The notes: generated by a model from the letters alone, not told the origin. A DNA stretch of 64,000 nucleotides from Escherichia phage vB_Eco_T-01 (PQ438391.1), one strand, 5' to 3'; positions 10,025 through 35,540 are shown, numbered from the stretch's first letter. Translations and numbers: made by a program.

Positions 10025-10038
10025 TTTATAAGAGATTA

Positions 10039-10062
10039 TGCTTTAATTTATTAGAGTATAAT
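10039..10062 (+). promoter_or_regulatory. MotA-box middle promoter (TGCTTTA ... TATAAT), embedded in a 9-bp inverted repeat (10031..10039 / 10058..10066)
   Basis: 11-bp gap between box and -10. Confidence 0.45.
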
Positions 10063-10079
10063 CTCTATGGAGGAAAAAC

Positions 10080-10268
10080 ATGGAATATTCAACTGGACAG
10101 CATCTATTAACTTTTCCTGAAATAAAACGATATATTCTGAGAAATAATTTTTCTAATGAAGAGCATATAGTTACTGAATCTATGCTTAGGAATGCATTTA
10201 AAGCAGAATATACAAAAATAATGTCCAATAGAAATGAAGCTTGGACTGTTACTGATTATTATGACTAA
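10080..10268 (+). CDS. hypothetical protein
   Basis: 62-aa ORF between gene 46 and rpbA. Confidence 0.45.
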   Translation: MEYSTGQHLLTFPEIKRYILRNNFSNEEHIVTESMLRNAFKAEYTKIMSNRNEAWTVTDYYD

Positions 10269-10277
10269 AGGTGTATT

Positions 10278-10667
10278 ATGACTAAAATTACTGTGAATTA
10301 TACTGTTGATGTAAAAGATATTCAGCCAAAACACGTGCGTTCTGACTCAAATCCGCAAAACCAAAATAAAATTCGTCGCGCATGGGTTTTGTCTCTTTCT
10401 GATAACGCAATGGAAGTTATTCAGAACAAAATTAAATCTGCACCTGCTCGTCATGCGTATTATGAAGCTATCGATCGTGAAGTAAGTAATAAATGGATTG
10501 AACTAATGCGCAAACATACTACAGAATCCCTAAACGCCGGTGCTAAATTTATTATGACTTCATGTGGTGAACATCTTGAAGATGATTATTGTGGTAATGC
10601 AGATGAACGTCTAATTGTTGCTGCTCAAATTGTTGCGGAAACAATTGCGGCTGATTTTAATCGTTAA
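10278..10667 (+). CDS. rpbA: RNA polymerase-binding protein RpbA
   Basis: 129-aa ORF at the syntenic position upstream of gene 45. Confidence 0.75.
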
Positions 10668-10668
10668 T

Positions 10669-10693
10669 TGCTTTATTAAATTAGTTATAAAAT
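10669..10693 (+). promoter_or_regulatory. MotA-dependent middle promoter for gene 45 (TGCTTTA ... TAAAAT)
   Basis: 12-bp gap. Confidence 0.5.
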
Positions 10694-10722
10694 TAAATCT
10701 CATTTGAATTGAAGGAAATTAC

Positions 10723-11409
10723 ATGAAACTGTCTAAAGATACTACTGCTCTGCTTAAAAATTTCGCTACTATTAACTCCGGTATTATGCTTAAATCCGGT
10801 CAATTTATTATGACTCGTGCGGTTAATGGTACAACTTATGCAGAAGCGAATATTTCTGACACTATTGATTTTGATGTAGCAATTTACGATTTGAACGGTT
10901 TTCTCGGTATTCTGTCTCTAGTTAATGATGATGCAGAAATTTCTCAGTCAGAAGATGGAAATATTAAAATTGCTGATGCCCGCTCAACAATTTTTTGGCC
11001 AGCAGCCGATCCGAGTACAGTAGTTGCTCCTAATAAACCAATTCCATTCCCGGTAGCATCTGTTGTTACTGAAATTAAAGCTGAAGACCTTCAACAACTG
11101 TTGCGTGTATCTCGTGGTCTGCAAATTGATACAATTGCTATCACGGTAAAAGAAGGTAAAATCGTAATTAACGGTTTTAATAAAGTAGAAGATTCTGCTT
11201 TGACCCGTGTTAAATATTCTTTGACTCTTGGTGATTATGATGGTGAAAATACATTTAATTTCATTATCAATATGGCAAATATGAAAATGCAACCAGGAAA
11301 TTATAAACTTCTGCTCTGGGCAAAAGGTAAACAAGGCGCTGCTAAATTTGAAGGTGAACACGCGAATTATGTAGTAGCTCTTGAAGCTGATTCTACCCAC
11401 GATTTTTAA
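10723..11409 (+). CDS. 45: sliding clamp gp45
   Basis: 228-aa ORF MKLSKDTTALLKNFATINSGIMLK... recognised as T4 gp45; MotA-box promoter upstream. Confidence 0.93.
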   Translation: MKLSKDTTALLKNFATINSGIMLKSGQFIMTRAVNGTTYAEANISDTIDFDVAIYDLNGFLGILSLVNDDAEISQSEDGNIKIADARSTIFWPAADPSTVVAPNKPIPFPVASVVTEIKAEDLQQLLRVSRGLQIDTIAITVKEGKIVINGFNKVEDSALTRVKYSLTLGDYDGENTFNFIINMANMKMQPGNYKLLLWAKGKQGAAKFEGEHANYVVALEADSTHDF

Positions 11410-11413
11410 TAGA

Positions 11414-11428
11414 GGGCTTCGGCCCTTT
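11414..11428 (+). terminator. C(UUCG)G hairpin after gene 45
   Basis: GGGCTTCGGCCC then TTT. Confidence 0.55.
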
Positions 11429-11460
11429 ATAATTTACACTAAAACTTGAATGAGGAAATT

Positions 11461-33085: not shown

Positions 33086-33768
33086 TGTTTGATTTTATTA
33101 TAGATTTTGAAACAATGGGAAGTGGTGAAAAAGCAGCTGTTATTGATTTGGCTGTAATTGCTTTTGACCCTAATCCAGAAGTCGTTGAAACGTTTGATGA
33201 ATTAGTTTCACGTGGCATTAAAATCAAATTTGATTTAAAAAGCCAAAAAGGACATCGTCTTTTTACTAAAAGCACTATTGAATGGTGGAAAAATCAATCA
33301 CCTGAAGCTAGAAAAAATATTGCACCATCAGATGAAGATGTAAGCACTATCGATGGTATTGTAAAATTTAATGATTACATCAATGCACATAATATCGATC
33401 CTTGGAAATCTCAAGGCTGGTGCCGTGGAATGTCGTTTGATTTTCCAATTTTAGTCGATCTCATTCGCGATATTCAACGTTTTAATGGTGTTTCTGAGAA
33501 TGAGCTTGACACATTTAAGTTAGAACCATGTAAATTCTGGAATCAGCGTGATATTCGTACCAGAATTGAAGCACTTCTGCTTGTTCGTGATATGACCACA
33601 TGTCCTCTTCCAAAAGGAACTTTAGATGGATTCGTTGCACATGATTCTATTCATGACTGTGCGAAAGACATCCTGATGATGAAGTATGCTTTGCGATATG
33701 CTATGGGTCTTGAAGATGCTCCGTCAGAGGAAGAATGCGATCCTCTGTCTCTTCCAACAAAACGATAA
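33085..33768 (+). CDS. dexA: exonuclease A DexA (DEDD 3'-5' exonuclease)
   Basis: MFDFIIDFETMGSGEKAAVIDLAV... recognised as T4 DexA; ATG at 33085 (ORF-track start 33073 is GTG). Confidence 0.85.
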   Translation: MFDFIIDFETMGSGEKAAVIDLAVIAFDPNPEVVETFDELVSRGIKIKFDLKSQKGHRLFTKSTIEWWKNQSPEARKNIAPSDEDVSTIDGIVKFNDYINAHNIDPWKSQGWCRGMSFDFPILVDLIRDIQRFNGVSENELDTFKLEPCKFWNQRDIRTRIEALLLVRDMTTCPLPKGTLDGFVAHDSIHDCAKDILMMKYALRYAMGLEDAPSEEECDPLSLPTKR

Positions 33769-33774
33769 AAAGTT

Positions 33775-33804
33775 GTTTACTTCCTCGGTTAGTTGTGGTA
33801 CTAT
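33775..33804 (+). promoter_or_regulatory. T4-type early promoter (GTTTAC ... TGGTACTAT)
   Basis: 18-bp spacer. Confidence 0.55.
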
Positions 33805-33831
33805 AACACCATAGCTACTGAGGATAATAAA

Positions 33832-34335
33832 ATGAAAATTTATCGTGTTGAATCATCTTTTAGTATTCTTAATTGTGAAGATGCTATAACAATACGTCGA
33901 AATCTTTGTGTTCAAATAACGCCATACAGGAGTATAATAGATTCATGGAGCGAAGAGTGGTTATTACACGTAGGTTATGATAAACCTAATTTTATGCACC
34001 ATAGTAATGATAATAAAAGAATTCCTCTTCCGCGCGAAGACAAATTATTAGTTAAAAATGCTAATATAACAATTAATACTAACTTTGAGAAAGAAGAATA
34101 TGTAGGCGTAGATCATTATATTCCCGGATGGTTTATAGCTCTTTATCATTTTGCTTTTGCTAGTGAATATGATATGATGAGATGGTTCACACGAGAAGAG
34201 CGTGAAGAATTATCTTCTAAAGGATTTTATCTCGCTGTATACGAAGTGCCAGATGACCAAGTTATCATTGGCGGACATCAAGTAATGTTCCGCAAATCCC
34301 ATGCTGAACTTGTAGATTTTATTGAAATGAGATAA
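33832..34335 (+). CDS. hypothetical protein
   Basis: ATG at 33832 with GAGGATAATAA RBS, downstream of an early promoter; 167 aa. Confidence 0.45.
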   Translation: MKIYRVESSFSILNCEDAITIRRNLCVQITPYRSIIDSWSEEWLLHVGYDKPNFMHHSNDNKRIPLPREDKLLVKNANITINTNFEKEEYVGVDHYIPGWFIALYHFAFASEYDMMRWFTREEREELSSKGFYLAVYEVPDDQVIIGGHQVMFRKSHAELVDFIEMR

Positions 34336-34337
34336 TT

Positions 34338-34877
34338 ATGAAATTTAATTATAATCCTGAATACATACCAAATCCTATAGATAAAATATTTGATATGGAT
34401 ATAGCAAGCATGTACGGCACTCTTGTTAAACCACTGGAAATTAAGGAACCTACTATGACTACCGCTATTGAAATCGGTAAAACCTACAAACTGGTTGAAA
34501 CTGAAATTAAAACTACTGAACTAAATTTGGGTTATAAAGCATTGACTAATGCTTTTGGTGAAGGCGAGTTTGTGGTTAAAAGCTTTTCAAAAAGTAACTG
34601 GTATGATAAGAATAAAGCTTACGTGATTCGAGCACACCGTTTAGATAATGATGAAGTAATTAAAACTATAGTCTTTGAAGCAGAGTTCATCCTCTTTCAA
34701 GAATGCGATCCTACTGACCTTTTAACTCGTGCGGTAGCTATCAAGACTCCATTTATTTCGGTCTGTGGTTGGGTAACAGACCAGTGGATTGAAGATGGTG
34801 TTGAACTTCTGAACGTGGTTCATGCAGGCGATTTTAGCGTAGTACCTCGTAGTGCGGTGGTAGCTATTTTAAATTAA
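34338..34877 (+). CDS. hypothetical protein, paralog of MotB C-terminal domain
   Basis: 179-aa ORF; C-terminal CGWVTDQWIEDGVELLNVV closely parallels CGYITDQWVEDGVKLYNVV of the next gene. Confidence 0.5.
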   Translation: MKFNYNPEYIPNPIDKIFDMDIASMYGTLVKPLEIKEPTMTTAIEIGKTYKLVETEIKTTELNLGYKALTNAFGEGEFVVKSFSKSNWYDKNKAYVIRAHRLDNDEVIKTIVFEAEFILFQECDPTDLLTRAVAIKTPFISVCGWVTDQWIEDGVELLNVVHAGDFSVVPRSAVVAILN

Positions 34878-34879
34878 TA

Positions 34880-34909
34880 GTTTACAAACTCTTGGGACCA
34901 GAGTATAAT
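34880..34909 (+). promoter_or_regulatory. T4-type early promoter upstream of motB; -10 TATAAT lies in the loop of the GGGACC/GGTCCC inverted repeat (34894..34915)
   Basis: GTTTAC, 18-bp spacer, TATAAT. Confidence 0.55.
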
Positions 34910-34953
34910 GGTCCCGCGGAGTATAAAATCTTTTTAACAAGTGAGAGATAACT

Positions 34954-35442
34954 ATGATTATTAATATTGGTGAAATTGCTCGTGTATCTGATAAATCCCG
35001 TTCTAAAGCAGCAGGAAAATTGGTCGAAATTGTAAGCATTCAGCTTAAACATGGCGTTAAAGATGAAGATTCTGAAGTAAAAGTGCGTATTATTCCTAAA
35101 GATGGAAAGTCTAAACCTCAGTTTGGCTATGTTCGTGCGAAATTTCTTGAATCTGCGTTTTTGAAAGCTGTTCCCGCTAAAGGAATTGAAACGATTGATA
35201 CTTCGCATGTAGGTGTAGACTTTAAGTGGAAACTCGGTCAAGCTATTAAGTTCATTGCTCCTTGTGAATTTAAATTTATCAAAGATGATGGAAAGGCTGT
35301 TTATACTCGCGCTATGTGTGGATACATTACCGATCAATGGGTAGAAGATGGCGTTAAGTTGTACAACGTGGTATTTTTAGGAACATACAAAGTCATTCCT
35401 GAAAGTTGGATTAAACACTATAGCAATGCTCTCTATGCATAA
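34954..35442 (+). CDS. motB: MotB-like DNA-binding protein
   Basis: 162-aa ORF at the syntenic position; own early promoter. Confidence 0.6.
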   Translation: MIINIGEIARVSDKSRSKAAGKLVEIVSIQLKHGVKDEDSEVKVRIIPKDGKSKPQFGYVRAKFLESAFLKAVPAKGIETIDTSHVGVDFKWKLGQAIKFIAPCEFKFIKDDGKAVYTRAMCGYITDQWVEDGVKLYNVVFLGTYKVIPESWIKHYSNALYA

Positions 35443-35540
35443 AGTTTAAAATTTTTTTCATAAAACTATATACATCAGTAGTTGATTATGGTACTATATC
35501 AATATCAACTACTGATACAGAAAACAACTTGGAGAATAAA

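Follow-up and report, generated by a model that had tools for sequence, protein, structure and literature searches.

Hairpins overlying promoters in three intergenic gaps of a T4-like coliphage

Three intergenic gaps with a hairpin over the promoter

Escherichia phage vB_Eco_T-01 (PQ438391.1) carries three intergenic gaps in which an RNA hairpin overlies the promoter of the next gene. The DNA stretch that we analysed as a whole (the window) comprises 64,000 nucleotides (nt) of a Tequatrovirus (T4-like coliphage), and the regions around both ends of the segment that holds the three sites share 95-99% identity with hundreds of Tequatrovirus genomes. On its + strand, the window reads in the direction in which early and middle genes of T4 are transcribed. 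Site 1 is located between the conserved genes 46 and 45.2, and sites 2 and 3 are found on either side of motB in the dispensable motB-cef region (Table 1). The gaps are 55, 76 and 86 nt long (98 nt for site 3 when measured to the ATG at 35541), and besides a stop codon and an ATG each of them contains an AT-rich stretch, a promoter and a Shine-Dalgarno sequence. Nearly every base of these intergenic sequences is the same in T4, and the T4 GenBank and RefSeq records annotate no promoter or terminator features.

Table 1. Features of the three sites and of related cassettes, given as positions in the window
Feature	Position	Strand	Details
Site 1, gap	10025..10079	+	between gene 46 (8342..10024) and gene 45.2 (10080..10268)
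Site 1, hairpin	10025..10071	+	full stem; core arms 10031-10047 / 10050-10066 (17 nt); sense-RNA fold
Site 1, MotA box of P45.2	10039..10045	+	TGCTTTA, in 5' arm; sequence reading, consensus match
Site 1, -10 hexamer of P45.2	10057..10062	+	TATAAT, in 3' arm
Site 1, start of P45.2 and Shine-Dalgarno sequence	10069..10073	+	transcription start 10069 = first G of GGAGG, Shine-Dalgarno sequence of gene 45.2 (ATG 10080)
Site 2, gap		+	between MotB-like paralogue (34338..34877) and motB (34954..35442)
Site 2, hairpin	34888..34922	+	13-pair stem; core GGGACCA / TGGTCCC 34894-34900 / 34909-34915; outer stem ACUCU / GGAGU
Site 2, early promoter	34880..34909	+	GTTTAC 34880-34885 (TTTACA 34881-34886), 17-nt spacer, TATAAT 34904-34909
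Site 2, candidate RegB site	34918..34928	+	GGAGTATAAAA, near match; GGAG paired in outer stem
Site 3, gap		+	between motB and an open reading frame (ORF) of 89 amino acids (aa; 35541..35810), which precedes cef
Site 3, hairpin	35474..35516	+	perfect 13-nt arms 35474-35486 / 35504-35516 plus apical helix; -10 at apex
Site 3, promoter	35468..35497	+	-35-like ATATAC / TATACA 35468-35474, 17-nt spacer, TG 35489-35490, TACTAT 35492-35497
Site 3, Shine-Dalgarno sequence	35531..35541	+	GGAGAATAAAA, of ORF 35541..35810; exact match to strong RegB consensus
Promoter-and-leader family, members	16269, 33796, 35489, 43461, 43967, 47109
Further class member, early promoter	21974..22009	+	GTTTAC 21967, TGGTATAGT, 15-pair hairpin around -10; -18.6 kcal/mol, z -4.9
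Further class member, early promoter	33782..33824	+	GTTTAC 33775, TACTAT 33799-33804, 17-pair hairpin; -23.7 kcal/mol, z -5.5
Further class member, middle promoter	3340..3383	+	TGCTTTA 3340-3346, TGATATAAT, stem ATAGATCT / AGATCTAT around -10; -12.3 kcal/mol, z -2.3

An earlier inspection of the sequence (the original prediction) had described three perfect inverted repeats in these gaps, which start 7, 17 and 34 nt downstream of the upstream stop codons of sites 1, 2 and 3, respectively. We found that these repeats are exact but that they constitute the cores of longer hairpins. The core arms of site 1 include two non-Watson-Crick positions, both of which are G-T, and its stem consists of 21 pairs with four G-U pairs among them. 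At site 2, the perfect arms extend over 7 nt, and at site 3 arms of 20 nt (35474-35493 / 35497-35516) enclose the perfect ones. The folding energies, calculation of which had been proposed as a check, were -19.3, -19.7 and -20.2 kcal/mol for sites 1, 2 and 3 (z-scores of -5.9, -4.7 and -5.2). For site 1, the antisense strand folded with just -9.1 kcal/mol. All three -10 hexamers had been assigned correctly, and the description of the repeats as bracketing them is accurate for site 2, where the hexamer is located in an 8-nt loop, and for site 3. At site 1, in contrast, the hexamer is part of the 3' arm.

Site 1 is the documented MotA/AsiA-dependent T4 middle promoter P45.2. For T4 middle promoters, a MotA box with the consensus (a/t)(a/t)(a/t)TGCTTtA, 12 +/- 1 bp from the -10 element, has been reported, and the start site of P45.2 is listed there as T4 33257 (Hinton 2010 review, Table 1, PMC2988021). 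In the window, tatTGCTTTA, with a perfect MotA box, is followed after 11 nt by TATAAT and the MotA box takes the place of a -35 element, an arrangement that among the three sites agrees with the middle-promoter definition at site 1 only. When the T4 coordinate is carried over via the identical T4 sequence, the start maps 3 nt beyond the core stem. MotA box, -10 element and mapped start of site 1 all coincide with those of P45.2. In the accessible literature, P45.2 is presented as a promoter only, and the overlying 21-pair hairpin goes unmentioned there.

The promoter at site 2, which serves motB, is a canonical T4 early promoter of the sigma-70 type. It has 11 of the 12 consensus matches and the top sigma-70 score of a 20-kb scan, its predicted start is at about 34916, and the annotators of phage wV7 independently labelled the homologous sequence a promoter. 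The site 3 promoter, of the early type and with an extended -10 element, drives the ORF after motB and has its predicted start at about 35504. Its match to the sigma-70 early promoter definition (TATACA, 17-nt spacer, TG-TACTAT) is weak, and it belongs to a repeated family with six members in the window (6 matches versus 0.25 expected). These members share an AT-rich UP region, then GTTTAC, a variable spacer of 18 nt and TGGTACTATACAACTATCAACTACTGATACAG, followed by GGAGAATAAAATG; for the site 3 promoter, the signature was given as UP element, GTTTAC, 18-nt spacer and TGGTACTAT. Only the spacer varies within the family. In three of the copies it is complementary to the leader or to the Shine-Dalgarno sequence, and at site 3 the complementarity is to the conserved leader of the family. 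The view that each of the repeats coincides with a promoter for the downstream gene has therefore held at all three sites, but two aspects had been overlooked, namely the MotA dependence of site 1 and the membership in a known class, the promoter-early stem-loop (PeSL) cassettes.

In every homologue, the mapped or predicted transcription start is located at the 3' edge of the stem or inside its 3' arm. Consequently, the hairpin can be folded only by transcripts coming from the upstream gene and not by RNA initiated at the embedded promoter.

Conservation of the stem-loops

For each of the three sites, none of 200 shuffled sequences folded as stably as the natural one. Over the 31 gaps between genes of the early region, we counted 16 perfect inverted repeats with arms of at least 7 nt (5.8 +/- 2.4 in shuffles) and three with arms of at least 9 nt (0.41 in shuffles). 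When 48-nt segments centred on the -10 element were folded, 4 of 20 promoter candidates reached -18 kcal/mol or less, compared with 0.13% of other TAnnnT hexamers (binomial p ~1.6e-8). Taken as a whole, the 20 promoter candidates were not significantly more structured than background (Mann-Whitney p = 0.087). The structure signal originates from a distinct subset of promoters (bimodal distribution) and not from a general shift. A search against Rfam was negative, both for the entire window at gathering thresholds and for the region 33700-35600 at E <= 1.

To compare homologues, IMG/VR and metagenomes were scanned, which gave 7-10 loci each, and the other genera were taken singly from a phage collection. 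The stem of site 1 was unchanged in nine Tequatrovirus loci, with variable flanking runs. In Mosigvirus, the same gap has a very different sequence but carries a MotA-like box (CGCTTTA) and a hairpin, GATGTGGT-tataatg-ACCACATC, with TATAAT in the loop (z -4.1). At this homologue, the annotators of SA35RD (Mosigvirus) marked a middle promoter and a rho-independent terminator, which overlap.

At site 2, the Tequatrovirus variants involve changes of G-C to G-U and of C-G to U-G. The Gaprivervirus stem (GGGGTCA / TGACCCC) differs by two compensatory double changes, and the Dhakavirus stem (GAGAGCCAT / ATGGCTCTC) is unrelated. In an alignment of eight site 2 sequences, 96% of the cells were paired and both sides had changed in 6 of the 13 pairs. 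When the pairing partners were moved by 1-3 columns as a control, 33-47% of the cells were paired and 0-2 pairs had changed on both sides.

The stem of site 3 was identical in every Tequatrovirus locus examined, and its flanks were variable. Dhakavirus and the Kanagawavirus PEi20 have stems that are unrelated to that of the window and surround TGATAAGAT or TGATACTAT. The Dhakavirus hairpin reads GATAGGGTA-gTGATAAGAT-TACCCTATC; the same stem, around TGATACTAT, was also present in a T4-like metagenomic genome. In PEi20, a complete GTTTAC is followed by a 15-pair stem around TGATACTAT. In Gaprivervirus, a GATAGGG / CCCTATC hairpin with a 4-nt loop is kept without a -10 element.

Compensatory changes and unrelated stems across genera indicate that the pairing is under selection, independently of the particular stem sequence. 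One-sided changes among the homologues were from G-C to G-U or from A-U to G-U, which keeps the pairing in the sense RNA only, and these wobble intermediates point to the sense RNA as the level of action. The repeats had alternatively been considered as possible recombination footprints of a cassette leader. This interpretation is not supported: the stems differ between genera while the structure persists, and such a turnover of the stems indicates selection on pairing and not a recombination scar. The only indel nearby, which distinguishes T4 from the window next to site 3, is a 207-bp in-frame deletion at an AAAA microhomology inside an ORF and not an exchange between cassettes.

Possible functions of the hairpins

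Each site may be regarded as an intergenic cassette of the T4 type, compact and with an RNA hairpin over its promoter. The stem arms make use of those promoter parts that are free to vary in sequence, which are the spacer upstream of the -10 element and the few bases between this element and the start, so that the -10 element comes to be in or beside the loop. In read-through RNA, the hairpin would most likely serve to define and protect the 3' terminus of the message from the upstream gene. It would block 3'-to-5' exonucleases once RegB has cut at an adjacent GGAG or ribonuclease (RNase) E has cleaved the RNA. Pausing or partial attenuation of read-through may come in addition, and the promoter would restart transcription. 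Structures, conservation, promoter identities and start-site geometry have been observed. For a cassette that in addition defines or protects the 3' end of the upstream message, possibly with some attenuation, we consider the chances to be about even.

The original prediction had called these elements 3' hairpins of the upstream RNA. The hairpin itself is borne out by the compensatory changes and G-U intermediates across genera; its function at the 3' end is what we infer, and the sites do not look like intrinsic terminators. The latter consist of a GC-rich stem and an immediate U-tract. At the three sites, no U-tract follows the stem, and the sequences directly downstream are AUGGAGG at site 1, GCGGAGUAUAAAA at site 2 and ACAGAAAAC at site 3. 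We favour 3'-end protection because of this lack of a U-tract, because the accessibility of the Shine-Dalgarno sequences hardly changes, because RegB matches are located nearby, and because of reported stable-RNA 3' ends. Many mapped 3' ends of T4 are thought to be ends of stable RNA and not termination sites (PMC6024815). The strong RegB cleavage consensus has been given as GG*AGRAYARAA (PMC3014915), and near-perfect matches are found 0-15 nt 3' of each hairpin (GGAGGAAAAAC at 10069-10079, and those listed for sites 2 and 3 in Table 1). At the position of the site 2 match, Dhakavirus and Gaprivervirus have GGAGAATAAAC. After a RegB cut at such a match, the upstream message would retain the hairpin at its 3' end.

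Several observations weigh against 3'-end protection. The gap of Gaprivervirus SP18 (34 nt; L042 530-585) retains MotA box and TATAAT but forms no significant hairpin, and the gap is absent altogether from Dhakavirus JS98, Kanagawavirus CIP9, a Jiaodavirus and a Gelderlandvirus, where genes 46 and 45.2 overlap, so that the hairpin is dispensable in some lineages. The sense strand was more stable than the antisense strand in 16 of 17 hairpins, compared with 64-77% in the background, and little weight was given to this bias since it is mostly an effect of base composition. Moreover, a stem-loop of comparable type from phages RB49 and phi1 that was inserted between lacZ and a strong promoter reduced reporter expression to a similar extent as rrnB T1 did (Arbiol et al. 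2010, PMC2839356), a result that favours termination.

True termination is the main rival. According to this explanation, the hairpins are terminators or attenuators that stop the upstream polymerase, preventing both a build-up of transcription along the promoter array and occlusion of the embedded promoters. It is the function that has been proposed for the PeSL stem-loops and supported by one assay, that with lacZ mentioned above (Arbiol et al. 2010, PMC2839356). Consistent with it, the Mosigvirus hairpin at site 1 was called a rho-independent terminator by annotators who used WebGeSTer, and those promoters of the window without an embedded hairpin are mostly preceded at a short distance by a canonical terminator. 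Such an alternation of terminator and hairpin suggests that the two arrangements are functionally equivalent. However, no U-tract begins within 2 nt of any of the three stems, and a terminator scan omits all of them, although it finds the canonical T4 terminators of the window with their GC-rich stems, TTCG loops and T-runs, from which the three hairpins differ. In addition, T4 early transcription is known to run through into downstream genes. Altogether, we consider termination a real but rather improbable option.

A less likely scenario is that the hairpins gate the fate of an RNA by its origin: the stem would mask a RegB GGAG or the ribosome-binding region in read-through RNA and leave it exposed in RNA started at the promoter. 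This logic clearly fits the cassettes at 28596-28630, 43956-44000 and 3327-3398, and RNA structure has been reported to protect against RegB. The RegB-like GGAG of site 2 (34918-34921) is paired in the outer stem. Nevertheless, the prediction for this GGAG is a mostly paired state in either RNA form (probability of being unpaired 0.02 in read-through versus 0.13 in promoter-initiated RNA), and the stem of site 3 stops 15 nt short of the Shine-Dalgarno sequence. The predicted Shine-Dalgarno accessibilities in the two forms were 0.43 versus 0.55 at site 1, 0.01 versus 0.02 at site 2 and 0.13 versus 0.29 at site 3. Sequestration of the ribosome-binding site (RBS) was rejected for these sites, as the values differ little.

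For a function of the palindromes as DNA, either by cruciform extrusion or as binding sites that modulate promoter opening or recombination, we see a very small probability. Sites 1 and 3 are near-complete palindromes, the long arms of which are only 2-3 nt apart, and PeSL stems have been speculated to be possible targets of recombination proteins (Arbiol et al. 2010, PMC2839356). Against this stand the imperfections of the arms, which are G-T and pair only as G-U in the sense RNA, the one-sided substitutions among homologues, which preserve wobble, and the unrelated stem sequences of different genera, which argue against a sequence-specific binding protein. We have still less confidence that the hairpins are intercistronic processing sites of RNase III, as between the early genes of phage T7, in which case the upstream message would end up with a 3' hairpin after cleavage. 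The helices of sites 1 and 3 comprise some 18-21 bp, with a symmetric 2x2 internal loop at site 3, but those of site 2 and of the Mosigvirus, Dhakavirus and Gaprivervirus homologues have only 8-13 bp, and a helix of this length is too short for a typical RNase III substrate. RNase III is also not mentioned (0 occurrences) in a review on post-transcriptional control in T4.

Beyond 3'-end protection at the three sites, the promoter spacer may have been recruited repeatedly to pair with the conserved leader or discriminator of the cassette to which it belongs. In this way, transcripts would be marked by the promoter according to their origin: RNA from upstream would obtain a hairpin (3' barrier, masked RegB site or masked Shine-Dalgarno sequence), and RNA born at the promoter would have none. 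We put this idea forward as a speculation that is rather improbable. If it was true, spacer-leader pairing would be a general and evolvable way of insulating dense promoter arrays, from early to MotA-dependent middle promoters.

Related cassettes and genome context

The combination of hairpin and promoter is not new, since PeSL cassettes have been described in the T4-type phages RB49 and phi1, and PeSL-like sequences were noted in T4 (Arbiol et al. 2010, PMC2839356). In PeSLs, the stem-loop is most commonly located between the -35 and -10 elements or over the -10 element (PMC2839356). The three sites share with them the intergenic position, the AT-rich beginning at the upstream stop codon and the end with Shine-Dalgarno sequence and start codon. 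They also share a stem-loop over the -10 element at all three sites and G-T pairs in the stems. The strong sigma-70-like early promoter of PeSLs has its counterpart at site 2 and, with a weaker match, at site 3. PeSLs form a repeated motif family that is enriched in hyperplastic regions flanking ORFans; of the three sites, site 3 belongs to a repeated family, and sites 2 and 3 are in a dispensable region. Unlike PeSLs, site 1 has a MotA box, which makes it a middle instead of an early promoter, and it belongs to the conserved replication and recombination module and not to a hyperplastic region. Moreover, the stems are mostly not of the G-tract / C-tract type, and we found no evidence here for the recombination between cassettes, via mini-circles, that is part of the PeSL concept, the nearby indel being a microhomology deletion.

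With intrinsic terminators, the hairpins have in common that they are stable and follow shortly 3' of a stop codon; they differ in that they lack a U-tract and have either loops of at least 8 nt or long, AT-rich stems. In the T4 genes e, soc, 49 and I-TevI, hairpins sequester the ribosome-binding site and a promoter is located inside. The mobE hairpin of Aeh1 is a cited case of this type (PMC3014915). As in these genes, the promoter of the three sites is inside the hairpin-coding region, so that the structure of the transcript depends on its start, but the Shine-Dalgarno sequence is not sequestered. The cassettes at 28596, 43956 and 3327 do fit the sequestration type.

Manual classification of the 20 candidate promoters in the early region placed 7 of them after a canonical terminator and about 10 inside a hairpin; 3 showed neither arrangement. 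Three further class members are included in Table 1. Of these, the early promoter cassette at 21974..22009 is positioned directly 3' of the end of a 475-aa ORF, and the hairpin at 33782..33824 has a GAGGA Shine-Dalgarno sequence within its 3' arm. In the cassettes at 28596-28630, 43956-44000 and 3327-3398, the hairpin pairs the Shine-Dalgarno sequence of the next gene (at 28596 also the ATG), and the promoter start is inside the hairpin. The predicted probability that the Shine-Dalgarno sequence is unpaired was 0.00 in read-through RNA of all three, versus 0.47, 0.79 and 0.62, respectively, in promoter-initiated RNA. On these predictions, the three cassettes match the classical T4 scheme of RBS sequestration.

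In our view, the new points are minor: a MotA-dependent middle promoter is included in the class, the spacer supplies the complementarity, and the three stems are not terminator-like. The current understanding of T4 gene expression is not changed. The PeSL design of RB49 and phi1 extends to T4 itself, and about half of the intergenic promoter candidates in the early region of the window follow it, among them at least one MotA-dependent middle promoter. Two signals, RNA structure for the upstream message and a promoter for the downstream gene, are packed into 55-98 nt between genes, and for annotation it follows that such hairpins should not automatically be called rho-independent terminators.

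Canonical terminators of the GGGCTTCGGCCC type are fused to the next promoter at 6102-6140, 37278-37320, 4829-4875, 13356-13396 and 11410-11433. At 6105-6140 and 37281-37320, the T-tract of the terminator (U-tract in the RNA) merges into a MotA box (AGCTTTA) upstream of TATAAT.

Downstream of site 2, the Shine-Dalgarno sequence of motB (GAGAG, 34943-34947) is predicted to pair with CUUUUU (34930-34935) in read-through and promoter-initiated RNA alike (probability of being unpaired ~0.01-0.02). MotB is a toxic protein, and the predicted pairing suggests that its translation is weak or regulated. Downstream of site 3, T4 and several other Tequatroviruses lack 207 bp (window 35550-35757) of the 89-aa ORF. 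In T4, the deletion is in-frame with an AAAA microhomology at the junction and leaves a remnant ORF of 20 codons, and the full ORF is kept in other relatives (e.g. L015).

The guanine plus cytosine (G+C) content of the window is about 34%, and the GC skew (the strand bias of G over C) is uniformly positive up to about 50 kb. At ~49900-50600, the skew flips its sign and the G+C content rises from ~0.34 to ~0.40. There, the early genes of the + strand yield to long ORFs on the - strand (1312 and 1289 aa), which are presumably late tail-fibre genes.

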